From the IMG/VR virus record IMGVR_UViG_3300025751_000013, positions 1 through 64,000 of that record: a stretch of DNA of 64,000 nt, one strand, 5' to 3'. The notes under the pieces were generated by a model. It was not told the DNA's origin. It was given only the letters and a program-made list of their open reading frames with translations, and made no database searches. The first letter of the stretch is position 1. Every line of letters begins with the position of its first letter. Below are positions 13,718 through 45,900 of this stretch, piece after piece. The position numbers and the translations under genes were made by a program. The stretch is from a virus. Taxonomy: Duplodnaviria; Caudoviricetes.

Positions 13718-13752
13718 TATAAATACAATGTAAAGTATATATCTATATTTAT
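13718..13752. promoter_or_regulatory. Face-to-face late promoters: TATAAATA (+, 13718-13725) and ATAAATA (-, 13746-13752)
   Basis: The T4 late consensus occurs on both strands in the short divergent intergenic region. Confidence 0.6.
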
Positions 13753-17268: not shown

Positions 17269-19014
17269 ATGTCTTGGAAAAAATATTTTACACCAGTACC
17301 AACTGTAAATAACCCTAGTGGAAGCTATAGTCCATTTAGTAATCGCAACTCTGGTAGTATGCCTGGTCCTGCTAGATCAAACTATTCGAGTTATTTGCCT
17401 GATGTATATGTTGGTACACCTAATCGTGTTGAACGTTATGGCCAGTACAACACAATGGATCTTGATTCAGAGGTTAATGCTGCTTTAGATATCCTTGCAG
17501 AGTTTTGTTCTCAACTTAATGATCAAAACGGTACACATTTTATAACTGAATTTAATAAAAAGGCAACAAATACTGAAGTTACAATACTTGCCCAGTATCT
17601 AAAGCAATGGTGTAAGATACAAAAATTTGATACACGTATGTTTAGAATACTAAGAAATGTATTCAAGTACGGTGACCAAATTTTTATTAGAGATCCAGAA
17701 ACTAGAAAATGGTTTCATACTGATCCATCTAATGTAACAAAAATTATTGTTAACGAATCAGAAGGCAAAGTGCCTGAACAGTATGTTGTAAAAAACTTTA
17801 ATGTAAATTTTGTAGATATGGTTGCAACAACTCCGTTTGATACTAACGGTAATGTAACAGGCGGCGGCAGTGGATATTTAACTGGCGGTGTTAGAGGAAT
17901 GGTTGGTAATAACCCAATTAACAACGGCAACCGTTGGCAAAATGAAGAAAATGAAATTACAGTTGATGCAAAACATGTAGTGCATTTAAGTTTATCAGAA
18001 GGCTTAGATAAAAATTATCCGTTTGGTAATTCACTATTAGAAACTGTATTTAAAGTATACAAACAAAAAGAATTACTTGAAGATGCGATTATTATCTATC
18101 GTGTTCAACGTGCTCCTGAGCGCAGAGTATTCTACGTTGATGTGGGTAACATGCCATCACACCTTGCTATGCAGTTTGTGGAGCGTGTAAAGACCGAAAT
18201 TCACCAAAGAAGAATCCCATCGGCGACTGGAGGAGGGCAAAATGTCATAGACAGTTCTTATAATCCTCTGTCAATTAACGAAGACTACTTCTTTCCACAA
18301 ACGGCTGAGGGCCGTGGATCTAAAGTTGAGACATTGCCAGGTGGAACTAATCTAGGAGAAATTGATGACCTTAGATATTTTACTAACAAGTTAGTTCGCG
18401 GCTTGCGTATTCCGTCAAGTTATCTACCTACTGGTGCAGATGATGCAAGTAGCCAATATAATGACGGTAGAGTAGGAACAGCATACATTCAAGAATTAAG
18501 ATTTAATACATATTGTGAACGTTTACAAGGATTAGTTGCTGAGCAGTTTGATACTGAGTTTAAACGTTATGTATTAGAAAAAGGTGTAAACATAGATACA
18601 AATATGTTTCAACTTAAATTCCAACCACCGCAGAACTTTGCAAGTTATAGACAGAGTGAAATTGATAATGCACGAGTGCCTACGTATACACAAATGGCAG
18701 CACTGCCTTACATTTCAAATAGATTTGCTCTTGATAGATTCTTAGGTTTATCAGCTGAAGAGATTGCAGAAAATGAACGCTTATGGCGTGAAGAAAATGA
18801 AGAAACACTTGAGCCAACAGCAACTGACGCAGGCGGCGAAATGCGTAGTGCTGGTATAAGTAGTGCTGGTATAGAAAGTGACTTAGGCGGGATTGAAGAT
18901 GTAGATGATACAGGTGAAGCACCAATACAAGGCTCGGAAGGCGATTCACCCGAAACTGCAACAGGCGATTCGCCTATGCCAGGCGGCGGAGCAAATGCTG
19001 AGCAAACGATATAA
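17269..19014 (+). CDS. gp20: Portal protein, T4 gp20-like
   Basis: LEDAIIIYRVQRAPERRVFYVDVGNMP, EDYFFP, GRGSKVETLPGG.NLGEIDD..YF, LRIPSSYL. Confidence 0.95.
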   Translation: MSWKKYFTPVPTVNNPSGSYSPFSNRNSGSMPGPARSNYSSYLPDVYVGTPNRVERYGQYNTMDLDSEVNAALDILAEFCSQLNDQNGTHFITEFNKKATNTEVTILAQYLKQWCKIQKFDTRMFRILRNVFKYGDQIFIRDPETRKWFHTDPSNVTKIIVNESEGKVPEQYVVKNFNVNFVDMVATTPFDTNGNVTGGGSGYLTGGVRGMVGNNPINNGNRWQNEENEITVDAKHVVHLSLSEGLDKNYPFGNSLLETVFKVYKQKELLEDAIIIYRVQRAPERRVFYVDVGNMPSHLAMQFVERVKTEIHQRRIPSATGGGQNVIDSSYNPLSINEDYFFPQTAEGRGSKVETLPGGTNLGEIDDLRYFTNKLVRGLRIPSSYLPTGADDASSQYNDGRVGTAYIQELRFNTYCERLQGLVAEQFDTEFKRYVLEKGVNIDTNMFQLKFQPPQNFASYRQSEIDNARVPTYTQMAALPYISNRFALDRFLGLSAEEIAENERLWREENEETLEPTATDAGGEMRSAGISSAGIESDLGGIEDVDDTGEAPIQGSEGDSPETATGDSPMPGGGANAEQTI

Positions 19015-19022
19015 ATAATACT

Positions 19023-21216: not shown

Positions 21217-21837
21217 ATGAACAACTACTTACGAGAGCATTTGACATTCGATCAAGCACAAATTGTGCTTGAGAATGCCAACGAAGGCAAAGATCTTTAT
21301 ATGAAAGGTATTTGCATTCAAGGTGACGTCCGTAACGCTAATCAGCGAGTATATCCTGTAAACGAAATTGGCAGGGCTGTCAAAACGCTCAACGATCAAA
21401 TCCAAAACGGATTTACCCCTCTCGGAGAGGTTGATCATCCAGATGGCTTAAATATTAACCTAGACCGTGTATGTCTCATGATTGAAAGCATGTGGATGGA
21501 CGGTGCAAATGGTTATGGAAAACTAAAAATATTACCAACTCCAATGGGACAATTAGTTAAAACTATGCTTGAAGCAGATGTTAAACTAGGCGTTTCTTCA
21601 AGAGGAGCAGGTGAAGTTGACAACAACGGTAATGTTGCTGACTTTGAAATTATCACTGTGGACGTTGTGGCTCAGCCCAGCGCCCCCGGTGCTTACCCAA
21701 CACCAATCTACGAACAATTATTAAATGCTCGTGGGGGTATGAAGGCATATGAACTAGCACAGGCAACAAAACACGATAACAAGGCACAAAAATATCTTAA
21801 GGAATCGCTGATTAACATAATCAGCAAACTCCAATAA
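21217..21837 (+). CDS. gp21: Prohead protease, T4 gp21-like
   Basis: N.NQRVYP, LGEVDHP, LGVSSRGAG, DVVAQPSAPGAY. Confidence 0.93.
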   Translation: MNNYLREHLTFDQAQIVLENANEGKDLYMKGICIQGDVRNANQRVYPVNEIGRAVKTLNDQIQNGFTPLGEVDHPDGLNINLDRVCLMIESMWMDGANGYGKLKILPTPMGQLVKTMLEADVKLGVSSRGAGEVDNNGNVADFEIITVDVVAQPSAPGAYPTPIYEQLLNARGGMKAYELAQATKHDNKAQKYLKESLINIISKLQ

Positions 21838-21851
21838 TAGGAGGACAATTA

Positions 21852-22949
21852 ATGTTGGACGCACTGAAAACACTTTTTGAAAACGATGTTGTTTCGGAAG
21901 AAATCAGAGCTGAAGTTGAGGAAGCTTGGAATGCGAAGATCGTCGAGAATCGCCAACAAGTAACCGCTGAACTACGTGAAGAGTTCGCACAGAAGTACGA
22001 GCACGATAAAAATACAATGGTGGAAGCTATTGATCAGATGTTATCAGAAGGATTAGCAAGTGAAATTGCTGAGTTTGCTGAAGATAGAAAGCAATTAGCA
22101 GAAGCTAAAGCAAAATATGCTGTAGCAATGCGTGAAAATGCTGATCTATTAAAAACATTTGTTGTAGATCAGTTACAAGGAGAAATTCAAGAACTTAGAG
22201 CAGACAAAGCAGCAATGGCTGAGTCTTATGCTAAACTTGAAGAGTTCGTTGTAGAACAGTTAGCTTCAGAGATAACAGAGTTTCATGAAGACAAAAAAGA
22301 TTTAGCAGAAACAAAAGTACGTTTAGTACGTGAGGCTAAATCACACTTGGCTAAAGTTAAAACTGACTTTATCCAAAGAAGTGCTACACTAGTATCTGAA
22401 ACAGTTGCAAAGACTCTTACTAAAGAGATTAGCGCACTAAAAGAAGATATCAATGTCGCACGTAGAAACGACTTTGGTCGTAAAATATTTGAAGCATATG
22501 CAGCTGAATACACTAATTCATATTTGAATGAAAAAACTGAAACTGCAAAGCTACTAAAAGTTCTTGATACTAAAAATCAACAACTAGCAGAAGCTAAAAA
22601 GTATGCTGCAAAAGCAATTGCTATTGCAGAATCTAAAGAAGCAGAAAAACAAAGACTTCAAGAATCAGCAATAAGAGCAGAAAAAATGAACAATCTTCTT
22701 GGACCTTTAAGTAAGGACCAAAGAGAAATTATGACAGACTTACTGGAATCAGTACAAACATCAAGACTAGAATCTTCGTTTGAAAAGTACCTACCATCAG
22801 TTATTGATAGTAATACTCCAGCAAAGCAAAAGGCACCACTAATAGAGGCAAAAGAAGTAACAGGCAACCGTGAGCAATCACAAACAAGTAGTAAACAAGC
22901 AGACGACGGAAATGTTATTGACATCAAGCGTCTTGCTGGATTAAATTAA
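21852..22949 (+). CDS. gp22: Prohead core scaffold, T4 gp22-like
   Basis: 365-aa coiled-coil protein between the protease and capsid genes. Confidence 0.8.
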   Translation: MLDALKTLFENDVVSEEIRAEVEEAWNAKIVENRQQVTAELREEFAQKYEHDKNTMVEAIDQMLSEGLASEIAEFAEDRKQLAEAKAKYAVAMRENADLLKTFVVDQLQGEIQELRADKAAMAESYAKLEEFVVEQLASEITEFHEDKKDLAETKVRLVREAKSHLAKVKTDFIQRSATLVSETVAKTLTKEISALKEDINVARRNDFGRKIFEAYAAEYTNSYLNEKTETAKLLKVLDTKNQQLAEAKKYAAKAIAIAESKEAEKQRLQESAIRAEKMNNLLGPLSKDQREIMTDLLESVQTSRLESSFEKYLPSVIDSNTPAKQKAPLIEAKEVTGNREQSQTSSKQADDGNVIDIKRLAGLN

Positions 22950-22959
22950 GGAGATTATT

Positions 22960-24141
22960 ATGTCGGAACTACTAGAAAGTCGCTGGCAGGATACGAAAAC
23001 AGCACTTCTTGAAGGCCTAAATGGCAACAAGAAAAGCGTAATGGCAGCAACATTAGAAAATACTCGCAAGTATCTTTCAGAAACTGCTACAGCTGGTGCT
23101 ACATCTGCCGGTAATGTCGCAACACTAAACCGTGTAATCCTTCCAGTGATTAGACGTGTTATGCCAACAGTTATAGCTAATGAGCTAGTTGGTGTTCAAC
23201 CTATGACTGGACCAGTTGGTCAAATCCACACACTAAGAGTACGTTATGCAGATAGCATTTCTACAAGTGGTGGCACAGACGTAACAGCTGGCGAAGAGGC
23301 TCTAAGCCCATTCAAAATTGCTGAAGCTTATTCAGGAAACGAAGGCAACCCAGGTACTGCTGATGTAACAGCAGCTATGGAAGGTGTTGCTGGTAACAGA
23401 ATGAGTATTCAGATCTTGAAACAAACTGTGGAAGCAAAGTCACGCAAGCTATCAGCTCGTTGGACTTTCGAAGCAGCTCAAGATGCTCAGTCACAGCATG
23501 GTATTGATGTTGAAGCAGAAATAATGGCTGCTCTAGCACAAGAAATTACTGCTGAGATTGACCAAGAAGTTTTAGCTTCTTTAACTTCGCTAGCCGGTAC
23601 TGCGGTTGAAACATACAACCAAGCAGCAGTATCAGGTACAGCTACATTTGTTGGTGACGAACATGCAGCACTTGCAGTTCAAATCAACCGCGCATCAAAC
23701 CTAATCGCTCAGCGTACACGTCGCGGCGCAGGTAACTGGGCAGTTGTTTCACCATTCACACTTACACTTCTACAGTCAGCAACTACTTCGGCATTTGCTC
23801 GTACTACAGAAGGTACTTTTGAAGCACCAACAAACACTAAAATGGTTGGTACACTAAACAACGCAATGAAAGTATATGTAAACACATATGCATCAGATGC
23901 ATCACCAGTACTTATTGGGTACAAAGGTACAAGCGAATCAGACGCAGCAGCGTTTTATTGCCCGTACATCCCACTAATGAGTTCAGGTGTTGTTCTAGAT
24001 CCAGGCACATTTGAGCCAACAGTATCATTCATGACTCGTTATGGATATGTTGAGCTAACAAATACTGCTTCGTCTCTAGGTAACGCAGCTGATTATCTAG
24101 CAAAAGTTGCAATTGATAATTCAAATGTAAGCTTTAGCTAA
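22960..24141 (+). CDS. gp23: Major capsid protein, T4 gp23-like
   Basis: RRVMP..IA.ELVGVQPMTGPVGQI, VEAKSRKL.ARWT.E.AQD, YCPYIPL, F.P..SFMTRYG. Confidence 0.96.
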   Translation: MSELLESRWQDTKTALLEGLNGNKKSVMAATLENTRKYLSETATAGATSAGNVATLNRVILPVIRRVMPTVIANELVGVQPMTGPVGQIHTLRVRYADSISTSGGTDVTAGEEALSPFKIAEAYSGNEGNPGTADVTAAMEGVAGNRMSIQILKQTVEAKSRKLSARWTFEAAQDAQSQHGIDVEAEIMAALAQEITAEIDQEVLASLTSLAGTAVETYNQAAVSGTATFVGDEHAALAVQINRASNLIAQRTRRGAGNWAVVSPFTLTLLQSATTSAFARTTEGTFEAPTNTKMVGTLNNAMKVYVNTYASDASPVLIGYKGTSESDAAAFYCPYIPLMSSGVVLDPGTFEPTVSFMTRYGYVELTNTASSLGNAADYLAKVAIDNSNVSFS

Positions 24142-24164
24142 GTTATAGTTAATACAGATAAAAG

Positions 24165-24190
24165 ATAGGCGCTACGGCGCCTATTTTTTT
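24165..24190 (+). terminator. Intrinsic terminator after the capsid gene
   Basis: ATAGGCGC-TACG-GCGCCTAT followed by a T-run. Confidence 0.9.
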
Positions 24191-24212
24191 GACTTTTTTT
24201 CTAATAAAATGG

Positions 24213-24240
24213 TTGACATTGTCTGTATAGATGTTATATT
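24213..24240 (+). promoter_or_regulatory. Sigma70-type promoter for the ncRNA
   Basis: TTGACA (24213-24218), 16 nt spacer, TG-n-TATATT (24235-24240), AT-rich upstream tract. Confidence 0.75.
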
Positions 24241-24246
24241 AGTTAC

Positions 24247-24499
24247 ATAACAAAGACGACGGTCTGAGTTAGATAGTGCAAGGAAGAGGAGTAGCAGGCT
24301 CCGAACTTGGCTCACACACTGTAGTGGTGCTAGTAGACTGTGGAGACACGGAGTGCTAGAAAAAGTAAACCTAACTAGTTTACTGTGAGGCGCCTAAGTT
24401 ATTTTCGAGCGACTGTACGCTTGGGTTGTTGGTATTCGCAAGTCCAACCTATCCATATTATAAAAAAGGCCTGTTATTAACTTAGCAGGTCTTTTTTTT
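24247..24499 (+). ncRNA. Unidentified stand-alone structured RNA of about 250 nt
   Basis: Own promoter and terminator, no ORF of 60 aa or more, about ten compatible helices including a GAGA tetraloop. Confidence 0.75.
24467..24499 (+). terminator. Intrinsic (possibly bidirectional) terminator
   Basis: AGGCCTGTTA/TAGCAGGTCT stem flanked by an A-run and a T-run. Confidence 0.85.
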
Positions 24500-24510
24500 A
24501 TAAATACATC

Positions 24511-24915
24511 ATGCAGGATGAATATGTATCTGCATTTTATGATGTAGTACAAGAAACTAGACAACATACTGGTATTGAATTACCAGAAACTATTGAGCAC
24601 TATGTTGTAGTCTTACTGGCATCTCATATTGATAAATCAAATTTTTTACCTTCTCATTCGTTTGCAAAATCGTTTTTACAATTAAAACAAGCAAGTGATG
24701 CAAAAACATTAGGCGATACATGTTTATTTGTAACGGGTATATTTCCAGATTACGGAATTGATATAGATTATTATTCAGATATAGGTAAAACTAGTTATAG
24801 TACCGTTGCTAATACACTAAATGGCGAATTATTTTCTACTTTAAGCGTACATTTTGACATTGTTAGAGATTTTATAAATTGTATTCCTAACAAACGAGAT
24901 AAATACTTAGTCTAA
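24511..24915 (+). CDS. Hypothetical helical protein
   Basis: 134 aa after TATAAATA (24499-24506); LGDTCLFVTGIFP..YY..IG..SY motif. Confidence 0.7.
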   Translation: MQDEYVSAFYDVVQETRQHTGIELPETIEHYVVVLLASHIDKSNFLPSHSFAKSFLQLKQASDAKTLGDTCLFVTGIFPDYGIDIDYYSDIGKTSYSTVANTLNGELFSTLSVHFDIVRDFINCIPNKRDKYLV

Positions 24916-24967
24916 AAGTGCTTCGTAAGAAGACTTATGCGGACCCACCGCGTAGACCTAGAACGTC
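24916..24967 (+). promoter_or_regulatory. Structured 5' leader with three tandem hairpins before the RBS
   Basis: CTTC-GTAA-GAAG, TATGCGG-ACCCA-CCGCGTA and GAC-CTAGAAC-GTC, then AAGGAG; late promoter ATAAATA at 24899-24905. Confidence 0.55.
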
Positions 24968-24979
24968 AAGGAGAAAACA

Positions 24980-25438
24980 ATGGGAAGACCATTAAACAAA
25001 CGATTATTTGCAGATGCTACTACAGGCCCAGGTGCAGGAGATGAAATTAAAGTAAACTTTCACGATGGCGCAGGCGTAAAAGAAGGTTTTATTGTAAAGC
25101 AAAAAGGATCTAAAAGATTTGTATGTTCAGAAGCAGGAGCATCTGATACTGTACATACATGTGTACTAACAACTGGAAAACTACCATCAGCATTAGCAGC
25201 AGGCGAAATGTCAATATCATTTAAGATGGATGATGAAGAAACTTACACAGTAAGTAAAATTTCTGGACGTAAAGCTACATTGTCAGCACCGAGTGCAACA
25301 GGATCAAACGCCTATGACGGCGCAAGTGTAGCATGGAACTTTGCAACATCACTAGTAGACGGCGCAGCACAGGTTGAAGAAGCTGGTGCAGATGACGTTG
25401 CTAACACAGATGACGATGATTTTACTGAAGACGCATAA
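24980..25438 (+). CDS. Putative virion structural protein
   Basis: 152 aa, strong RBS, late promoter. Confidence 0.6.
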   Translation: MGRPLNKRLFADATTGPGAGDEIKVNFHDGAGVKEGFIVKQKGSKRFVCSEAGASDTVHTCVLTTGKLPSALAAGEMSISFKMDDEETYTVSKISGRKATLSAPSATGSNAYDGASVAWNFATSLVDGAAQVEEAGADDVANTDDDDFTEDA

Positions 25439-25448
25439 GGATTGAGTA

Positions 25449-25817
25449 ATGACTAGACCTATTAATGTTTTTGGAACAGTAGTAAACTATCTAAAAGATT
25501 TAATAGTAACAGTCAAGATTGGTTGTGCTAAGGTTTCACCTTTTGGTGTTATCTTAGCACAAATAACAGATACAACATTCAAAGTCCAAGATGATCTTGG
25601 AAATGAAGGAATATGTACACTTGTTAATAAAAGAAACAGTAACGATTTAGAAGAAAATGAAATGACAATAAAAGGGTTAGTAACAGATAATGTTAGTTTT
25701 GTTTTAATATCAAAGGTAATAAAGGATATTATGTTTGATTTTAAAAATATAAGATATTATTTTACTATAGATCACGACTCAACGTCTAATATTCTTTTAT
25801 TGACAGAAAGAGGGTAA
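25449..25817 (+). CDS. Putative structural protein, diverged paralogue of 24980-25438
   Basis: Shares M.RP.N, G.I..Q....F, C.L and EM.I patterns with the preceding gene. Confidence 0.55.
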   Translation: MTRPINVFGTVVNYLKDLIVTVKIGCAKVSPFGVILAQITDTTFKVQDDLGNEGICTLVNKRNSNDLEENEMTIKGLVTDNVSFVLISKVIKDIMFDFKNIRYYFTIDHDSTSNILLLTERG

Positions 25818-25820
25818 TTT

Positions 25821-26837
25821 ATGTCAAAGTTTTTAAAAGTAATAGACGGAGATTACAAAATATCAGTTGAGCCTGGTAGAGAAATATCTCTTAATACAGG
25901 TTTAGAAACTGGTACAGTAAGGATTAGTGGTGACTTAATAGTCGAAGGTAATACGGTTACTGTTCAATCTGAAAATTTAACTGTTAAAGATAATGTTATT
26001 GTAGTTAACCAAGGCGAAACAGGATCTGGAGTTACAGGTAGTGCTACTGCTGGTGCTCCAAACTCAAGTGGTATAAGTATTGACCGCGGCGGATTTAGTG
26101 ATGCTTACATTTTATTTGATGAAAATGTAACTTGGTTAGATCCAGGTGATGATGAAAATCCTGATATTGATGTAACACCTAGAAGTGGTGCATTTATATT
26201 ACGTGACGATATTGGAAACTTAATAGGTTTAAAAACAAACAGTATTGTTACAGGTGGCGGAAATTTATTTTTAATCAGCCAAGGTTCAGGAGTACTAAGT
26301 GTTGAAGGTACTGTTAACTATGAAAGTAATGTTACACAAGACGATCACATACCAAATAAAAAATATGTCGACGATGCTGTTTTAGGTTTCGTTGGTATTA
26401 GACGTATTGCGTCAGGTGACGAGTTTATCGGAAGCGGTATTACATACGTTGAAGCACTATCAAAAGATGTTGCTATTGGTAATCTTGAAAGTTTTGTTGA
26501 ATTTAAGATTGATAATGTATCTTTAGCATATTTTTACGATGATAGAGCAGAGATTGATGATATAAAAATTCAAGATAATCAAATTACTACTGTATCATCA
26601 GGTATTGACTTAGTTCTTAAACATACAAGTAACCAAAGTGTATTAGTTGATAACAATCTTGCAATTAAAGAACTTCCAAATCCATTACTTGTTCCAGCAA
26701 CACCAACTGATGGCGTAAAGATTTATGCAAGTGATCAGTCAATTGGTGGTACAGGTATATACTTTGTTAACAAAGAACAAACAAGAGACGAGTTAGTGAG
26801 TAGAAGTAAATCTATTCTATACGGAATTATATTTTAA
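25821..26837 (+). CDS. Virion structural/fibre-type protein
   Basis: GDLIVEG.T..V....L.VKDN.I..N.GE...G and GI.IDRG motifs, PNKKYVD, hydrophobic C-terminus. Confidence 0.65.
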   Translation: MSKFLKVIDGDYKISVEPGREISLNTGLETGTVRISGDLIVEGNTVTVQSENLTVKDNVIVVNQGETGSGVTGSATAGAPNSSGISIDRGGFSDAYILFDENVTWLDPGDDENPDIDVTPRSGAFILRDDIGNLIGLKTNSIVTGGGNLFLISQGSGVLSVEGTVNYESNVTQDDHIPNKKYVDDAVLGFVGIRRIASGDEFIGSGITYVEALSKDVAIGNLESFVEFKIDNVSLAYFYDDRAEIDDIKIQDNQITTVSSGIDLVLKHTSNQSVLVDNNLAIKELPNPLLVPATPTDGVKIYASDQSIGGTGIYFVNKEQTRDELVSRSKSILYGIIF

Positions 26838-33951: not shown

Positions 33952-36900
33952 ATGTCAACAATAAGACTCAAGAGAAGTGCTGAGCCGGGTAAAATCCCAT
34001 CGATTGAACAACTAGAACTAGGCGAAGTAGCTGTCAATACACATGACGGCAAAATGTTTATGAAAAGAGACCAAAGTGGTAACTTTGCTATAAAAGAATT
34101 TGGCGCAAGAGACGCCGCAAGTAATGTGTTTTACGTAACACAAGACGGATCTAATACTAACGATGGTAAAACAATAGGAGACGCATTTGCGACTATTGAT
34201 TACGCTTTAAAAAATATTCCAGAGGGATCAACACTATATGTAAAGGCTGGACAGCACACAGTTGACAATCCAGTTAAACTTCCGGCATTTGTTGCTATTG
34301 TTGGTGACTCACTTAGAACTACATTTGTACAACCAAAAAATCCAGCAGAAGATATATTTTGGGTTAACAACGGTTGTTTCCTTAAAGATATGCGCTTTAA
34401 TAACTACATTGCACCTAGTGCAGCAGTTTCGTTCCCCCCAGATGGAAGCGCCGGATCAATTATGTGTTCACCGTATGTACAAAACTGTACATCATATACT
34501 ACAACTGGTACAGGTATGCGAGTTGACGGATCAGTTGTTACTGGCCTACGCTCAATGGTTGTTGACGCCTATACACAGTATAACCAGGGTGGTATTGGTG
34601 TGCATCACCTTAACAGAGGTAACACACAGCTTGTTTCGATCTTTACAATTTCATGTGATATTTCGATTCTTTGCGAAAGCGGCGGCTTTTGCTCACTAAC
34701 TAACTCAAACACATCATTTGGTAACTACGGACTTATTTCCGATGGTTATAGTGAAGCACTATTTGGTGCGTCTGCTGGTGCTAACATTAGTAGAAACTCG
34801 ATGTTTATGAATGACCTAGTAACGGTTCCATTTATTCAAAACGCATCTGTGTTTAGTGGCACTGGTGAAGTTTATACAATTTCAGAAGCTACTCCGATTA
34901 AAGTCGGTCAAGGTGTTGTAACTGGACCAACACTAACCCAAGAAGACAGTGATTTATTATTTGCTAGAGAAAGAATTTTAGCCAATAGAGAAGTAATTCA
35001 AAGATCAACAGTTAACTTTGTGAAAGATAATTATCAAACAGGCGGCGAATTTGACGAAGCTAAATGTGCTAGAGATAGTCAACTTATACTTGATGGTGTA
35101 GGTTTTGATGTTGCACTAGATACAAACTTTAACAGTGTTTATAATGGTATTTCGTATCAAAGAGCAAATGCTAAATTTGTTATTAATACCCAGTTTGAAG
35201 CAACAAAAGGCGCAATTGATTTCTTAAAAGCCGAAACAGCAGCTTTACTAAGTGGTACTTCATTAACTAGAGCTAATGCAGGATTTGACGATGTAAAAGG
35301 AATTCTTGACGGTGGTGTAATAAGCACTACAGTTCCAGGAGATGGTGTAGCCGACGCACTTACATTTAGTTCAACACTAGGTGTAACAGATGGTATAAAT
35401 GCTAGAACAATTTTACAAGCGAATATTGCATTCTTACAAGCAGAAGTACTTGCATTTAACGATGATTATAATGCAACGGCGATTGCTGCTGACGCTACCG
35501 GTGCAACTACAGTAGTTTATGATAGAGAAAAGTGTCAAAGAGATGTACAATACATTGTAGACGCTCTTTCATATGACGCACAGTATGGTGGCAATAGCGC
35601 AACAGTATCGGCTATGAATTCTTATATTGTTGGTACAGGAATTGATCAACTTCCAGCAGATCAAAGAGATCTTACTGCTGATTCATATGCTCACTTAGCA
35701 GATATGGTTGCAGCAATTTTAACTGATCCGTCAGTTGATCCTGGTACAAAATTAAGTGCTGGTAGTCCAGACAATTCCGCAGCGGTTACTGCTGCATCTC
35801 TTTCAGGTACAATCGAAGCACTTGTAGATACATTTGCAGGAGTATTAATTGAAGATGCAACGCCGGCTGGCACACCAACTGCAACTATTCCAGCAGTAGT
35901 AACTCCAAATGTTACAACATTGGGTGTAGCAGCAGAGTTTACAACATCGCAAACTGCAATCACAAATGCGTCTGCACAAATTGTAGATGATGTAATTGCA
36001 TTTGTTAATCAAGAATATAATTTCTCTTTCAACCAAGAAAAATGTGCAAGAGATTTACAAGAAATAATTGATGCAGCTAAAATAGATGCTGTTACAAACT
36101 CTTTGTACAATCAAACTGTAGTTGGTTTAACATACACAATGGAAAGTAGTGCTTATCTACTTAACTTACAAAAAACACAAACCGCAGCAGGTATTCAATA
36201 TGCTAGAGATTTAGTTACAGCAGACGGTAATTTTACAGATACTACAGACAGAACTGAATTTATTAATGCTGTAAACGAAGTAATTAACATATTAAATACA
36301 GGAACTCCAACATCTGACTTAACAACTGGTACTTTTGCAACTAATTTTCCAACAAGCACTGATTATTCTAATGCAGCAAGTCGTGCAGCCGCAGCTGAAG
36401 CAATAATAAACGGTATTCCTTCTTTACAGACTGATGCTCTAACTTTCCTACAGAATGGGAACGCAGGTGGTGGTTTTGATTTTTCAGCCCAAGCCGGAGA
36501 ATTTTCAAGTTTAGCTAGTGGAGGTACTGTTTCATCAGATGAACTAAAATCAGTATACCAAGATATGGTAAGAGATGGAACATTTACCAAGTGTCAAAGA
36601 GACGTGGCTTACTTAGCACAAGCAGTAGCATTTGATACAATGTATGGTGGTAATAGTGCAACTTTGCGTGTAGCAAAATCATACTTTGTAGGTGCAATTG
36701 CAGGTGACGACGATACTGAAATATCACAACTAGGTGGCGGACAAAAGAATGCAACACTTGCACTATATGCCTTCTTGGCAGTACAAATTGCGGCAGCTGT
36801 TAGCGCTGCGTCAGCAAATGCAGGGTTAGGTTCGGGCTCTGGTGCATCAAAAACAATTAATCAATTAGTTGCAGTTGTTACTGATCATATTGACGCAGAC

Positions 36901-39900
36901 GGTGTAGCATTAGCTTCTTTAGATACAGTTATACTTGCCAGCCCTGCCGACGACGATGAAATTCTAACAGTATCTGAAATTGAAGCAGTTGACGACGAAG
37001 CAATTAATGATACAATATTCTATCTACAAGATGCATTTGTACTACTAGACTTTAACGAGTCTAAGTGCTACAGAGATACAGGTATTATTATTGATGCTGT
37101 TGTAGATGACATGGTACTAGGAACAAATTATAAATCAGTAGTTTCTGGTAGAACATATTCAATGGATTCAGCGGCACTTGTTATTGCGGATCAAAAAGTA
37201 GAAACATTAGCAGCAATAAATCATGCAAGAGACGAAGCACTAGGATTTATCAATGACTTTTCGTCTAATGCTTCAAAAGTTACAGCATATAATAGAGTAC
37301 AGTCAAACTTTAATTTGATTTCTGATTTAATTAGTAAGTCAGAGTATGCATTTAAATCATATACAGTAGTAGACGCAGATTACAATCCGACGGCTGCTGG
37401 TAACTATGGTAGTACTTCTACTCCTGCAAACAGAGTTATGACATTAACAATTGGCCAGCATAGTTTTACAACATCAGATACAGTTGTAATTGCTCCTAAT
37501 AGTTTAACATTCCAGTGTTATTCAAGTGGTGATAATGAGTTCCAAACTATTACACATCCAAGAGAAGTAGCAGGTCAAAGTGCAGATCCAAATGCAGTAT
37601 CTCCAGGTTCAGATCCAGCATTTGAAACTCCAGTAGATATTGTTGCAGTTACAGACACTACAATTACAGTAGACGTTGGTGTAAATACTGGTGCTGGTAA
37701 TGTTGAGCATACATTTATTAGTGCTACAGAAAATGGTATAACATATGGTAATTCGTTTATTAATTATCCAATGCCAACAAATGTTCTACCAGAAATAAAC
37801 AGAGCGTTTACAAACATCAAGAAAAACAAAGCATATTTGATTGAAGAAGCAGTTGCTCATATCGATCAAAACTATCCGTTACTAGGATACGACAGAGGAA
37901 CATGCGAAAGAGATATCGGACTTATAATTGATGCTGTGTCATACGATGCAATGTTTGACTCAAACTTCCGTTCAATTACAGCTGGTAAAGCATATCTAAG
38001 AGGTGTTATACAAGTTATAACAGGTGATGTACTTGTAGATGAAACAACTACTACAACAGGTATTACTGGTACACTATTAACAATGGATCCAACTAAAACA
38101 GTAGTAAATCCAGGTGACGAGTTAACAGTTCTACCAACTGAGCAAAAAATTGCAACACTAGAATCATTTAGAAAACTAAGAGATTTACTTGTTCAGATTA
38201 CATTTGATAATGATACAAAGGCACGTGTAGTAGACCGTATGGATCTTATTATAGATATTGTACAAGATGGCGAATCAGTAATTCCAGCAGTAAGTATTCC
38301 TACAGCAAACATTACAACTAACGACACAGTAAACTATACAGAAAACTTTAATGCAACTGGTGTTCCAGAAACAATTACAAACATTGAAAATTCGAGAGAA
38401 TTTATTATTGCAGAAACAAAGGCATTTATTGATACTAACTTCCCAGCATTATTATCAACTGATGCTAACGGTAATATTGTCCGAGACTATAATGCAAACG
38501 ACAAGTGTGAAAGAGACGTAGGTCTTATATTAGATGCACTAAAATATGACTTAACATATGGCGGTAATATGGAAACCTTAATAGCTGGTAAAGCATACTT
38601 CTCAGATGTTGTTGCATCAGCAGATGGACCAGTTGATTTATTAGGTTCACGTTCAGTAAACATAGATATTGTTAATGCTGGTGGTATTCAACTGATTAAT
38701 CCAATTACAATTACAACATCTATTAAACATGGCTTAGTTGATGGATCACAAGTAACACTACTAGATATTAGTGGCGTTGTTGAACTAACAGGTAAAACTT
38801 TCTTTGTTAAGAAAGTAAGCGACACAGTGTTTGAATTATATGATGATGCAGCCCTAACAATCCCATTAGACGGTACTACTGGATTTACAGCATATGCTAA
38901 CTTAGGTGGTACTGTAAGAGTTAATGCAGCAGAAGTAATTGCTACTGTAGAGTCTTATAACTTCCTAGCAGATCTAATATTGACACTAGGTAATGGTGTT
39001 GCTCCAGTTAATCCACAGCAAACAATTGTTACAGCAGGAGCACTGACAACAACTAACAGTCCAAATGGTACTAGAGCAAAATCACTTGTTGACGATATTA
39101 TTACTATAATTGAAAACGATAGCTCTGTTCCAGTTGAGTTGCTTGCAGATCCAAGTTGGGTCACTGGCTACAATGCAACCGAAACATATCCGTTAGAATT
39201 AAATGGCACCGATCTTTATTCAGACTTCTTGATTATGCAAGGTGAAAAAGATGATATACAATCAGAAATTACAAGATTTATTGAAGCAAACTTTGCTTAT
39301 GATAAAAAAGTATGCCGTAGAGATATGGGATACATTATTGATGCTACATTATTTGATGCACTATACAACGGTAACAGTGCAAGTTATGATGCAGCAAGAC
39401 AATACTATACACAAGGTAAACTAGTTATTCCAGCAATCCAGCGTAAAGCAACAGGTGACGCAATGGAACTTCTTAGAAAGCGTATAGGTGATGTACTACG
39501 TTCAAACAGAGTTGTTGCAGAACAACTTCCAACATCGCCGACATTAGTGCTACAAGATACAACTACTCCAGCAGCCACAATTACTGAAATTCTAAGAATT
39601 CAGAAAAACTTTGATGTACTTGAAAGTCAAATACGTAGAGATTATTTCATCAATGACTTTATTGATGTAATTGATCCTGACTTTAATCTTCAAACAGAAA
39701 CAGCAAACAAAATTAGAAATAAGATACTTGCTGAAAAAGAAAACCTACAGGTTAAAACAATTAAATTTATCGATACAACATTTAGAGAATTCCGTTTTGA
39801 TAGAGAAGTTTGCTCAAGAGACGTAGGACTTATTTTAGATGCAGTTGCAATGGATGTTGCACTAGGTACTAACTATAATTCAATTATTGCAGGTCTATCA

Positions 39901-42900
39901 TATCAAAGAGGTAGTTTGTCAATTGGTACTGTTAAAGATGAGCAGAAGCCACAAACAATAGCAGCTATTGAATTCCTAAAAACAGAAACACTAGCAATTT
40001 CAGGACTGTCAGCAACAGGTATTGCAAGAGCAACAGCAGCATTTGATGAAATTATAGACATCTTTACAAATGGTGAAACAAGTACTAGAACAGCAGCAGA
40101 TGCAATTACATATCCAGTTCCGACAGGTGTTGATACTAACAAACAAAACTCACATGACTTGTTACGTGCTAACAGAGACTTTATATCTGAAGAGATTATT
40201 GAATGGATTGAAGATAACTTTACAAACTTTGAATATGATGAGTTTAAGTGTGAAAGAGACACAAGAATTATACTAGATGCAATTGCACTAGACGCAGCTC
40301 TAAATACAAACTATAACACAATTACAGTAGCACTTGCATACAAGCGTGTAAATGCACAACTAGTAATTACAGATCAGTTGATACAAACTGTAGCAGCTAT
40401 GGATTATCTACGCAAATTAGTAGACGAAAACAAAGATCTAAGTGTTATTGGTCGTGCAAGAATGACACGTTTAATCGATGATATTATAGAAATTGTACAA
40501 TCAGATACAACTGACTTAGATGTATTTGACAGTACAAACTTTGATAGTACACTACTTAACGCATACGAAAACATTGAAATGAATGCACCTAAAAATGCAA
40601 CACAAGATGAAATCGATGCCAAAGAGCAGTTAAAACTTAACAAAGAATTCTTAGCAAGTGAAGTATTAGCGTTTATCAACTTAAACAATCCGACACTAGA
40701 CTATGTTGAAGCTAAGTGTAAAAGAGACGTTAAATTCTTACTTGATGCAGCAGCATTTGACTTACTATACGGTGGTAACTCAGCAACTGTACAAGCGGCT
40801 AATAGCTACTTTGTAGGAACAGCTAACCAGTTAGGTGATGACGAAGTACAAGCAACAATCGATGCTTATAACCATTTAAAAACTGTTATTGAACCAGTTG
40901 TACTTGCAACTAGTGAAGATAACAATCCAGTATATGTACCAACAGCTGGTAATAGTATGCGTCAAATTATCGAAAGTGATCCAGGAACAGCTACTGAAGT
41001 TGCAGCTATTCAAGCATCGCTTGATATTGTTATTGCTAGAATACAAGGCACACCGACACCAACACTAGTTAAGCCAAGTTTAACAGGTGCTGATGCTAAC
41101 TTAATTAAAGACTTTAATGAAATATCAGAGACTGCTTCAGTAGAAGCACAGAAAGTTGTAGATTATGTAAATGATCAATTTGCAAACTTTACATATGATA
41201 TTGACAAGTGTGCAAGAGATGTTAAACTAGTTGTACTAGGCGCAGCAATTGACTTAGAGTATTCAACTAACTATAACAGTGTAACTAATGGTCTTTCATA
41301 CCTAAGAGGAAATGCTAAGAAAGTTTCAAACGCATTCCAAAAAGCAATTACACTAGCCGCACTTGATAAACTAAAAACACTAGCAGCTACAACTATCGGA
41401 ACAGGTACAGGTTATGCAGCAGCAGTAACAGCAGTTAATGCAAGTATTGATACAGTAAAAACAATATTTGATGAAGGTTTAGTTGGCATAACACCAACAA
41501 ACGCTGTATATGATCCAACAACAGGTGTTATGGATCTTACAATTGGCGAGCATACATTCATACAAGGTGATACAATTACACTAGAGCCAGGCAGCTTGAA
41601 ATTTACTTGTGCAAGTGACGGAAACAACGTTGTACAAGCATACCCAAGAACAAGTGATCCGGCATTTAATTATACACTAAAAATTATTGACACTGGTAAA
41701 CTAACAATAAGTGTAAACGTTGGAGTATCATCAGAAACATCAGCGCACACATTTATTACAGCAGATGAAAAAGCAATTAAAACTGGTGCTCTTCCAAATG
41801 CAGTTCCGGCGCTAACATTTGCAGGTATAGATGCAACAAATGACTCGGCTTATGCAGCAAAAGCAATACTTGCTAACAAAGCGTTTATTGCAGCAGAGAT
41901 GTCAGCATATGTTGTAAATGATCCTAACTTTATACTAGTTGGTAACTACGATGAAACAAAATGTCGTAGAGATTCAAATAATATATTAGATGCAGTTGCA
42001 TTAGATTTGCGTACAGGTTCAAACTATAACTCACTATATGCAGGTATTGCATACACAAGAGCAAATAGTGATTATGTAATTAGTGCCCAAAAATCAGCAA
42101 CAATAGCAGCTATTGAATTCTTAAGAGATACTGTAAAAGCACTATCAAATGTTGATGCAGCAGCAGACACAAGAATTGATTCACTATTTGCAATTATTAT
42201 CGCAGCAATTAACAGTGGCGCTACAAGCACGTTGCTTCCAGGAGGCGCTACAGGCGTTCCACTATTAAGTCTTCCAACTCCGAATACTCCAATTGCAGGC
42301 GGCGCAGATGCAGCAGCACGTTTAACATATAACAGAGATGCGTTAGCAGAAGAAGTACTAGAACACATTAACCAAAATGCAAATGCTATATACCTATCTA
42401 TGGATCAAGCTAAATGTTCAAGAGATGTAAAATACATTGTTGAAGGACTAGCACATGATGCAGTATATGGTGGTAACATTGGTGCTAAACTAAATGGCGA
42501 AGCATACTTTGTAGGTAACGATACTGAACAGTTAGGCATTGGTCAAAGATCTGCAACAGTAGCAGCATATCAACATCTTGCACAAGTAATAGAGCAGTTA
42601 GTCGGCGCAGGTGTAGCTGATGCTGGATTCACTAGCGTAATATTAGTAGCTAACCCAACTCAAGCGTGGAGTGATAATTCAGTACCTAATGCAGCAACAA
42701 TAGCAACTTACTTAGCAGACAGTTCAACTGGGTTAATTGAAACTTGCATAGTTGCACCTATTAATGCAAACAAATTGGCTAACTTCTACACACCAACAGC
42801 GGCATCATATGTTCCAACTACAGGTGTACTAACACTTACTGTAACTGGTAATCCGTTCTCAAATGGTGATACAATTAGACTAGCAGAACGTAGCATTGGA

Positions 42901-45900
42901 TTTAAATGTCAAAGTGATGGATTTAGAAAAGTATTCTACTATCCAAGAACAACTGATCCAGCACTTAACTCAGACTTAACAATAAGTAACGTAGTAGGTG
43001 ATAGTTTTGACGTCCAGATTGGTGTATCATCAGAAGAAAGTACACATCAGTTCGTAGGACCAGCTACAAATGCAATCATTGATAGCACATTACCAGATGA
43101 TGTACAACCAGCAAGTGCTCAGTATGTAACAACTGTATCGTTCACAGATGCAGCAACAGCAATTGTTGCAGGATCAGGAACAGCAGTAGATTCAACAATA
43201 TCTTATATCAATTCAGATCTAAGCTTTAACCAAACTAAGTGTGAAAGAGACACAGGTTACATTGTTGAAGCATTAACACATGATACATTGTACGGCGGCA
43301 ATTATGCAACTACACAAGCAGCTCTAGCTTATAGAGTTGGTGTCGCAGGACAGTTAGGTAGTAATTCACCTGAAACTACAGCAACAGTAGCAGCATATGG
43401 TACACGTTTACCAGCAGTAGTACAAGCAATTGTTCAAGGCGATGCACTAACACCGTCAACAGGCAATTCAGTGACTCAAGTTGCAAATGCAAATACAGTA
43501 AGCCCGTGGACTAATGCTAATGCAACTATTGCAGCAGATATTCAAAATATTGTAGATGTTATTGAGCATGGCGGTGATCCACTATCAGTTGATGCTTCGA
43601 TGATAGCAGAAACTAACATAACTGAAGGTACAATATATGATGCAGAATCAGGTGTACTAACACTAACACTTAGCGGCACATCTACAGGACTAGTAGCAGG
43701 TACAAGCACAATTAGACTAGCACGTAATAGTTTAACATTTACTTGTGCAAGTGATTCACATGCTACTTCATTAACATATCCAGACAAAGATAGTTTTGGT
43801 TATGATAGAGAATTAAGAGTATTAAGTGTTGCAGAAGCAGGTAACACAACTATTACTGTTAACATAGGTAATGCACGTAAACTAGGTGCTACTTCAGCAG
43901 ATAGAATACACAGATTTGTAAGTGCAGCAGCTAATGCAGTTGTATTACCAATTTCACCAACAAGACCAACTATAGCAAACACATTTGCTACATCACTTGT
44001 AACAAAAGCCGATGCAGCAAGCGATAACTTTGGTGATTTGATAAATGCATATCTACTATCAGACTTCCCAACAAGCACATACGATAGAACACGTTGTAAG
44101 CGTGATGTAGGATTTATTGTAGACGCTCTATCATACGATGTACTATATGGCGGTAACAGCGCAATGCGTGAAGTTGCAAGAAGCTACTTTAGCTTTGGTC
44201 TAAACTTACTAGGTGATGATTCTAAAGAAACAGATGCAACAATATTTGCATATGAGCACCTAAGTAGTATTATTGGAGAGATTGTACAAGGTGTACAAGT
44301 AGGAAAAGCTACAGGTAACTTATTAGTACAAACATATGATACAGCAAGTACACTAGCAGAAGCAGCAGTTGCTCAAACACTACTAAAACTAGTTACAGAT
44401 ACAATTAGAGATAGAAGTGTTAATAAGCTAGATGAGCAAGAGCTACCAGATATTACTTGGGCAGCGTCAGAATTCCAAAATGACTTTGCAAGCATTACTT
44501 TTAACAAGTCAGTAGCACAAGCTGATACACTACAGTTTATTGACGATAGATACACAACATTTAGTTACGATCAGTTTAAGTGTTCAAGAGACGTTGGATT
44601 GATCTTAGATGCTGTTTTAGCTGATATGGTAATGGGTGGTAACTACCAGTCATTACTAGCAGGAAGCAGTTATTACAGAGCAAGTGCGTTTATTGTAAAA
44701 GGCGATCAGCTACCAGAAACAATTGAATCAATCAAATTCTTGAAGAAAGAAGTTGAGAAAATCTTAACAGATCCATTGTTTACAGCAACAGTTGTTCCAG
44801 GTACATATCCTAACCCAACTATAAGAGCTATTACTCCGTTAGAAGCTATTGAAAATGCTAAAACACTAACTGAAGTATTTGGTGATACGCAAGAGTATGC
44901 AGATCTTATTGCAAGATTTAATGATGTTCTTAGAGTTATGGAAAATGGACTAACTAACGCAGCTGAAGATCAAATACAATTTGTTGCTCCAACTGGAATT
45001 ACAGGAACAAGAACTAATGCTAAAGACATATTACTTGCAAACAAAGAATTCTTTGTTGAAGAGTCAGTGGCGTTTATCAAAGAAAACTTCCCACTAATTG
45101 GATATGACAGACAGACTTGTGAAAGAGATGTAGGACTAGTTCTTGATGCTCTAGGGTTTGACTTAATGTTTGGTTCAAATATGCGTAGTATTACAGCAGG
45201 TAGATCTTACTTTAGAGAAGGCGCTGCTGTTGTAAGTGCAGATCAAAAGAAAGCAACACTAGCAGCATTTGAATTCTTAAAAGTTAAAGCAGCAGAAGTT
45301 GTAAGCAGTGCAATACTATCAAATGGTTCTTACGTAGCACCAGGCGGAAATAAAGAATTTATCATAACAGTAGGTGCTGACTCATATGAACAAAAACCAA
45401 CTGGTGTATTCTACTTAGATGGTATAGAGCAGCCGATAATAGAACTAGATCCAGGTGCAGTATATACCTTTAATCAAGATGATCCAACTAACGCTTACTT
45501 TGGCGATAATCGTCATCCTCTAGTGTTTAGCACAACAAGAGATGGTGATAATGCAGGTGGTACAACTTATGACACTGGTATTGCTTACTACTTAGACGGT
45601 GTATCAGTTGACGAAGCACAGTACGAAAGAGGATTTGCTAGAGCAACACTACGTAGAGTAGAACTTGATCTTAGAGGCAAGTATACAACAGAACTATACT
45701 ATGCAGGCGGCGCCCGCAAAGGTATGGGTAACTTAATCTACGTAAAAGCAAAAACAACAGGTGAACCGATTAAAAAGTCTATACAAGATAATATGAATGT
45801 TATTCTTGCACTTCTTGATAGAGGTAATGTTACTTGGCAGCCATATGATGCAGAATATAAAACAGTAGGCACAGATACAAGTGGTAATCTAAAACTTTAC

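Follow-up and report, generated by a model that had tools for sequence, protein, structure and literature searches.

In phage phi29, the packaging RNA (pRNA) is a small RNA that the phage encodes and that is transcribed separately; its copies are linked by intermolecular loop-loop pairing, which co-varies between related phages. The pRNA gene is located within or close to the head and packaging functions, and the RNA assembles as a ring at the portal of small podophages. ROOL, GOLLD and OLE-type non-coding RNAs are often borne by phages or prophages and located near tRNA genes; their chains of several hundred nucleotides form RNA-only closed symmetric particles, as dimers or dihedral multimers. 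The PeSLs of T4-type phages are mobile cassettes of a promoter plus a stem-loop, which flank small protein ORFs.

manA RNAs were described by Weinberg et al. in 2010 as a probable riboswitch in 5′ UTRs, from marine metagenomes, T4-like cyanophages and two gamma-proteobacteria, with no known ligand and with an element drawn as ‘pseudoknot?’ in the structure (PMC2864571). The Rfam alignment of the family was corrected in release 14.3 (PMC7779021). By cryo-EM, Ren et al. (bioRxiv, July 2026) found that manA RNAs join as pentamers, that these close to form octamers, decamers or a 60-mer T=1 cage, and that neighbouring copies of manA_A0F1 are in contact through L5-L7′ and L8-L9′ kissing loops, the assemblies having been obtained by in vitro folding of concentrated RNA in 10 mM Mg (10.64898/2026.07.01.735769).

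The stretch described here lies in the first 64 kb (hereafter the window) of an IMG/VR record of 109.9 kb, which CheckV estimates to be ~30% complete, so that the source is a jumbo phage. It is a divergent manA-family RNA, a new, sub-threshold member of a known family. As with PeSLs, the cassette that carries it is short, has early-promoter and terminator-like bounds and is present or absent between conserved genes of related phages, but its cargo is a structured RNA instead of small protein ORFs, and what bears on its possible mobility here is the pair of present and absent alleles. ROOL, GOLLD and OLE-type RNAs are families unrelated to manA, and the window RNA is ~210 nt long. It has no sequence or structure similarity to phi29 pRNA, and neither pRNA nor tRNA-clan families gave an Rfam match at E up to 10 in 23800-24900. 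Canonical manA copies, unlike the phi29 pRNA gene, are not near head genes, and we know of no link between manA and packaging.

A divergent manA RNA downstream of the major capsid gene

The head module of the window ends with a major head protein that shares 67-72% identity with its counterparts in Sinorhizobium phage Phosso, Vibrio phage 2.275.O, Pseudomonas phage PA5oct and the Serratia BF / GAP32 group. Past the head and tail genes lie two giant ORFs, at 33952-48828 (+ strand, 4958 aa) and 51332-64000 (+ strand, open end, at least 4223 aa). On the 3′ side of the capsid gene, the capsid terminator is followed by a promoter, a GC-richer stretch and a stem-loop with a U8 tail that ends at 24499. 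The region is laid out as follows.

21217-21837: maturation protease gene, head module
21852-22949: gene for a 365-aa protein, head module
22960-24141: major head (major capsid) protein gene, head module
24160-24199, + strand: intrinsic terminator of the capsid gene, 13-bp stem and T-run; upstream edge of the cassette
24200-24498, + strand: entire inserted cassette of ~300 bp (promoter, RNA and terminator), T-runs at both edges, bounded by comparison with the relatives L008 and L009
24213-24240, + strand: sigma70-type promoter, -35 TTGACA, 16-nt spacer, TG-extended -10 TATATT, 11/12 positions
24247-24457, + strand: manA-family RNA body, P1 to P9, ~210 nt, identified by model scores and covariation
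24462-24499, + strand: intrinsic terminator of the RNA, with an A-run, GGCCUG/CAGGUC (24468-24491), a 12-nt loop and U8
24499-24506, + strand: TATAAATA box, T4-late-promoter-like, between the RNA terminator and the ATG at 24511
24511-24915, + strand: 134-aa ORF after the cassette, without a PHROG family

The Rfam model of manA (RF01745) aligns to 24252-24458 over its full length, model positions 1-192 of 192, with a score of 44.5 bits. The E-values, 6e-10 for the local search and 3.5e-8 when the whole window is searched, exclude chance. The score is below the gathering cut-off of 55.2 bits, the match having been found by E-value reporting, and at gathering thresholds Rfam places no family in the window. 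Syntenic relatives score 34.7-54.5 bits on the same model, and because all 57 unique clade sequences fall under the cut-off, the whole clade is missed by standard Rfam annotation.

The nine-helix consensus architecture is fully present, with P1, P2 and P3, a P4 multiloop that holds P5, P6 and P7, and then P8 and P9. For a search in the reciprocal direction, a covariance model, R1, was built from 52 clade sequences only, without canonical manA. R1 scores the window RNA at 188 bits and matches full-length, at 17.7-44.9 bits, 81 of 100 loci gathered with a canonical manA consensus word; all 20 of the R1-matched canonical loci that were checked were confirmed by RF01745, at 125-195 bits. The full-length match and the reciprocal model search therefore identify the RNA as a divergent manA member missed by the curated threshold, and not as a new class.

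Canonical manA and the window RNA have in common the nine-helix architecture from end to end, complementary L5/L7 and L8/L9 loops, and a series of short words: GACG in the P1 loop, AGUG after P2, GU(R)GU in L5, UAAC(Y)A in L7 and GGUA...UCC in P9. Canonical manA and the clade RNA are alike found in phages of marine or aquatic origin, and in each some copies adjoin tRNA genes. Beyond the gap in RF01745 score between the clade and canonical manA, the clade RNA has a shorter P3 and a longer P6, with an internal loop and a GAGA tetraloop, and its L8/L9 words are unlike those of canonical manA and variable within the clade. The carriers differ as well, being a jumbo phage for the clade (its capsid protein has, as above, relatives in Vibrio phage 2.275.O, PA5oct and Serratia phage BF) and T4-like cyanophages for canonical manA. 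Finally, the clade RNA has its own sigma70-type promoter and terminator, as opposed to the 5′-UTR position described for manA.

Fold, covariation and loop-loop complementarity

The + strand of 24248-24500 folds at -82.4 kcal/mol (z = -3.7, with 0/200 shuffles equally good); the - strand of the same segment is unremarkable (z = -0.7). The parts of the RNA body are as follows, all on the + strand.

24248-24271, + strand: P1, 5′ hairpin, UAAC/GUUA and AGAC/GUCU, loop GACG; corresponds to the consensus P1 with its GAcg loop
24272-24276, + strand: P2, 5′ strand GAUAG of the closing helix, partner CUAUC at 24449-24453; 100% paired, invariant
24279-24309, + strand: P3, CAAG/CUUG with inner GGAG/CUCC
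24311-24389, + strand: P4 multiloop, CUCACA/UGUGAG, enclosing P5, P6 and P7; as in the manA consensus
24322-24325, + strand: L5 bases UAGU, complementary to L7 ACUA
24374-24377, + strand: L7 bases ACUA, partner of L5
24393-24425, + strand: P8, CCUAAG/CUUGGG
24409-24412, + strand: apical L8 bases GCGA, complementary to L9
24428-24448, + strand: P9, GUUGG/CCAAC, 11-nt loop; as in the manA consensus
24436-24439, + strand: L9 bases UCGC, partner of L8

Within the multiloop, P5 is CAC/GTG, P6 is CTAGTA/TGCTAG with CTGTG-GAGA-CACGG, and P7 is GTAAAC/GTTTAC (in DNA letters). A 2-bp ‘P8b’ was rejected for want of a conserved register and because of its overlap with the pairing bases of L8.

Base pairs were counted in an R1-guided alignment (A4) of 52 distinct sequences; a plain MAFFT alignment mis-registers P4, P7 and P8. 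Across the whole structure, 86.6% of cells in A4 are paired, compared with 77.6% in shuffles, and 33 pairs have changed on both sides, compared with 21.9 +/- 1.9 in shuffles, none of 500 of which reaches 33. As a control, sliding the 3′ partners by one to three columns leaves at most 10 pairs changed on both sides. Compensatory changes are found in all 10 pairs of P6, in 2 of the 3 pairs of P5, in 5 of the 6 of P8 and in several of P9, while P1 (nearly invariant in the 52 sequences), P2 and P3a show no variation and are hence uninformative on covariation. P3b, P4 and P7 are 22-75% paired in A4, where the register of these helices is that of the window, a minority variant; in the RNAalifold register, P3b, the inner helix of P3, is well paired and co-varies.

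The two loop-loop complementarities are kept across the clade. L5-L7 (columns 80-83 with 134-137) is 99.5% paired, its middle pair being A-U in 36 sequences, G-C in 15 and G-U in 1. L8-L9 (columns 171-176 with 200-204) is 96.2% paired; its pair (173,203) is G-C in 36 sequences, U-A in 8, A-U in 5 and C-G in 3, and is broken in none, and another position is A-U in 36, C-G in 8 and G-C in 6. Five L8/L9 word pairs occur in the clade (AGGAU/AUCCU, CUGAU/AUCAG, GCGA/UCGC, CGAGA/UCUCG and CAGA/UCUG), and the Rfam manA consensus has, at the same sites, UGGU with ACCA for L5/L7 and aCUguA with uacAgu for L8/L9. The compensatory changes in L5-L7 and L8-L9 place both pairings under selection. This covariation is equally compatible with contacts between molecules and with pseudoknots inside one molecule.

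The cassette and its surroundings in related phages

The first-pass annotation had described a structured RNA behind the capsid gene, as a separately promoted and terminated unit that is insulated by the capsid terminator. Comparison with relatives bears this description out, and every helix named there is present, each with a counterpart in P1 to P9 of the Rfam manA consensus. The capsid terminator, with its 13-bp stem and T-run at 24160-24189, lies upstream of the promoter, which is the best-scoring site within 23000-26000. The transcription start predicted from it, at ~24247, puts the beginning of P1 within a base or two of the start. TTGAY-N16-18-TAYNWT is found at a fixed distance from P1 in 52/52 unique upstream regions of relatives and the TGn extension is kept in 43/52, against a variable spacer and a variable A/T tract further upstream; hexamers that are kept around a variable spacer are the pattern expected of a working promoter.

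The terminator of the RNA begins only ~5-10 nt after the fold. With terminators called in relatives by a T-run plus an RNAfold test, a hairpin and T-run are found at most 60 nt from the RNA 3′ end in 77 of 112 evaluable loci, with stems and loops that differ from one relative to another, independently of variation in the RNA body. About one third of the related loci have no terminator right after the RNA and have another structured element instead. In both the MFE and the centroid structures of the window RNA, the full manA fold and the terminator form simultaneously, and their coexistence in the MFE structure speaks against switch-like behaviour.

One second folded element that replaces the terminator, at 3500-3623 (- strand) of L051, has a ~22-bp closing helix and three hairpins (-47.4 kcal/mol, z = -6.3) and no Rfam match at E up to 0.01; likewise, L049, L060, L066, L082, L088 and L096 carry such an element, which is a candidate for a further non-coding RNA. 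A distinct ~60-nt spacer (...AGCAACGTG...) occurs about 60-80 nt after the RNA in L055, L043, L070, L079, L087 and L131, and ends in a long GAAAGG(C/T)ATACTAG hairpin ahead of the next gene.

The 5′ motif of the RNA occurs in at least 118 IMG/VR contigs, which yield 57 unique RNA sequences; the record of the window itself holds one copy of a manA-type RNA by R1 search. Of 130 loci, 113 have the RNA behind a major-capsid homologue, at a distance of 102-1850 nt. The gene on its 3′ side varies, with at least 7 different homologues of window genes in that place across the loci. The 134-aa ORF at 24511 follows the RNA in only 23 of the 130 and is thus itself a variable insert of the post-capsid region. 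In two relatives, L008 and L009, the cassette is absent and its flanks are kept, so that the capsid terminator runs directly into the 134-aa ORF. There the ORF is intact, with a TATAAATAC box ahead of its ATG, and the TATAAATA box is kept without the RNA; these natural alleles show that absence of the cassette is tolerated.

The TATAAATA box occurs 3 times in the 64 kb, compared with 9.2 expected, and all three copies (13718-13725, 19010-19017 and 24499-24506) are on the + strand, just before gene starts, 2-5 nt ahead of an ATG. Related loci have GATAAATAC at the equivalent position. Since the box is rare, confined to the + strand and placed right before gene starts, the ORF at 24511 appears to own a late-type signal, and the box belongs to this downstream gene and not to the RNA. 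The boxes could be T4-type late promoters that yield leaderless or near-leaderless mRNAs. The ORF at 24511 has no Shine-Dalgarno sequence.

The next intergenic region, 24919-24982 (+ strand), gives a full-length, sub-threshold match to another Rfam family, the freshwater-2 RNA (RF02980), which scores 38.5 bits in the window and 41-44.6 bits in relatives, below a cut-off of 49.9 bits. The match spans the Shine-Dalgarno sequence and ATG of the ORF at 24980-25438, and copies in relatives lie at L010:3411-3476, L055:1888-1960 and L079:2375-2442; the element looks like a clade-wide conserved 5′-UTR element of that ORF. At L058:4195-4368, a copy of the manA-type RNA is truncated after P6 and fused directly to the freshwater-2-like leader, without the 134-aa ORF, and looks like a deletion allele.

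The RNA body itself exists in a second form. In L006, L010, L012, L017 and L049, a type B body of 177-179 nt (at about 2773-2950 in L010) has the same promoter, P1, P2 and terminator, but the P5-P7 domain is replaced by a smaller one with a single hairpin and a repeated UUAGCG word. With RF01745, type B reaches 44-51 bits, and with R1 it reaches 61-68 bits. The variant suggests that RNA bodies have been exchanged between constant promoter and terminator flanks.

One clade RNA, in L089, lies within a tRNA array, and for 3 of the 20 canonical manA RNAs a tRNA gene follows 0-8 nt past the 3′ end. These canonical copies, in L171, L182 and L197 (170-177 bits), end before a tRNA gene on the same strand. 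In many other canonical copies, a conserved GACCTAAGATGCAAC...GGGCAGATGGTC hairpin follows, and in three loci (L173, L197 and L212) glutamine riboswitch aptamers lie a few hundred nucleotides from the canonical manA RNA.

The window RNA had no blastn match among 50,697 cultured phage records, and the commonest clade variant had only 59-nt, promoter-like matches in Enterococcus phages, which we judged spurious. The complete genomes of Vibrio phage 2.275.O and PA5oct had no R1 match. The clade 5′ motif had no exact match in 185,579 prokaryote genomes, which thus gave no host or prophage lead. An IMG/VR search with the pattern GTAGTGGTGCTAG...CTAG...TAAC returned mostly coding DNA (Gly-Ser-Gly-Ala codons), with real matches only in three contigs that were already known.

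A probable separate RNA gene and its possible assembly

We consider the stretch to be, with good probability, a stand-alone RNA gene of the divergent manA family that acts in trans and self-assembles, and not a riboswitch. The two parts of this reading differ in strength. That the RNA is a gene of its own is highly probable on the arrangement of its locus, and is favoured by the kept promoter, the terminators, the variable next gene, the absence of the cassette in L008 and L009, the box owned by the downstream gene, and the copies that lie in a tRNA array or adjoin tRNA genes, a site typical of stable RNAs and not of leaders. That copies of the RNA assemble with one another in vivo is argued by analogy, and we put its chances only slightly above even.

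In the proposed sequence of events, host sigma70 RNA polymerase would start at the TG-extended promoter (24213-24240), which would imply early or constitutive expression, and transcription would end at the 24462-24499 terminator to give an RNA of ~250 nt. Its ends, abundance and timing are all predicted here from signals in the DNA. The body, 24247-24457, folds into the nine-helix manA core, as the model match and covariation show, and compensatory change maintains the complementarity of L5 UAGU with L7 ACUA and of L8 GCGA with L9 UCGC across the clade. Copies could then join through L5-L7′ and L8-L9′, as in manA_A0F1 (10.64898/2026.07.01.735769), into a trans-acting, self-assembling particle or scaffold. 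The choice of contacts between molecules draws on this one unreviewed preprint, which deals with other manA sequences; because manA_A0F1 copies are joined there by both contacts, we favour a trans-acting particle over a leader of the next gene. As to what such a particle might do, sequestering or scaffolding is our guess.

The same stand-alone RNA might instead work as a monomer, with L5-L7 and L8-L9 as intramolecular pseudoknots that lock a compact fold for binding a protein or small molecule in trans. We regard this as unlikely, although the observed covariation fits it equally well and the present data hold no direct counter-evidence. L5 and L7 lie in one multiloop and P8 and P9 are neighbours, so that pairing within one chain is sterically conceivable, and the ‘pseudoknot?’ drawn by Weinberg et al. 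(PMC2864571) is in line with it; what weighs against it is that cryo-EM places both loop pairs between neighbouring copies of manA_A0F1 (10.64898/2026.07.01.735769).

Much less probable is a riboswitch or other cis-regulatory leader, in which the 24462-24499 terminator would be an expression platform that controls early read-through into the ORF at 24511 and beyond. Rfam types manA as Cis-reg, in keeping with the 2010 description of a probable riboswitch in 5′ UTRs (PMC2864571), and in the window the RNA is co-oriented with the downstream genes and closely followed by its terminator. Against this, the downstream neighbours are too varied to give a constant 5′-UTR position before a coherent gene set, and the ORF at 24511 retains its own TATAAATA box and is intact in the relatives that lack the cassette. 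Terminator stems and RNA body have varied independently of each other, and fold and terminator are not mutually exclusive in the MFE structure, with no conserved alternative pairing seen, short of a dedicated covariation search. Nor would a leader be expected inside a tRNA array or, as in canonical copies, directly against tRNA genes.

We give hardly any credence to the suggestion of the first-pass annotation that the RNA represents a new class, outside the known families, and might be a tRNA mimic or a ribozyme; a decoy role, also raised there, is as speculative as that of a ribozyme. No Rfam family reaches its gathering score, and a standard pipeline would leave the element unannotated, but the reciprocal full-length covariance-model matches to manA make chance very unlikely and already refute a place outside the known families. 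ARAGORN finds 0 genes in the window, in agreement with the earlier remark that no tRNA or tmRNA is recognisable, and equally offers nothing for a tRNA mimic. The ‘TTCG’ loop and loosely tRNA-like 3′ end do not survive the comparison: the UCG is part of the L9 word of the window variant, UCGC, one of five interchangeable words and one side of the co-varying L8-L9 pairing, and in relatives the T-loop-like UUCG of the 11-nt P9 loop gives way to UCCU, UCAG, UCUC or UCUG. Evidence for a cleavage site or a catalytic core was not found.

A small peptide with incidental structure can be set aside with similar assurance: stop-free stretches of 41-68 codons, mostly on the - strand, and short ORFs at 24181-24315 (-), 24385-24480 (+) and 24394-24567 (-) are present, but the + frame of 24385 is open in only 6 of 52 relatives, the - strand ORFs would cross the promoter, terminators or neighbouring gene, compensatory pair changes dominate the variation, and since variable columns show no codon periodicity (43/42/45 by codon position, p = 0.95) and most indels have lengths other than multiples of three, a hidden peptide does not explain the conservation.

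To return to the preferred reading of a self-assembling RNA gene, a more specific extension by analogy is a long shot. In infected cells, the RNA might form pentamer-based rings or cages, the five L8/L9 and two L5/L7 words might act as lineage-specific assembly codes that prevent mixing among co-infecting relatives, and its nearly constant location, where the block of head genes (portal, protease, scaffold and capsid) ends, might reflect a role at capsid vertices or in head assembly, loosely like that of phi29 pRNA.

From 2010 to date, manA has been filed as a probable riboswitch; this locus, with its 57 unique sequences, presents manA as a gene of its own. Natural selection maintains the complementarity of the very loop pairs that form the assembly contacts of manA_A0F1. 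The reading of assembly as function thereby becomes testable, for example by mixing RNAs with different natural loop words, and adding the clade sequences to the Rfam seed alignment would cure the annotation gap.
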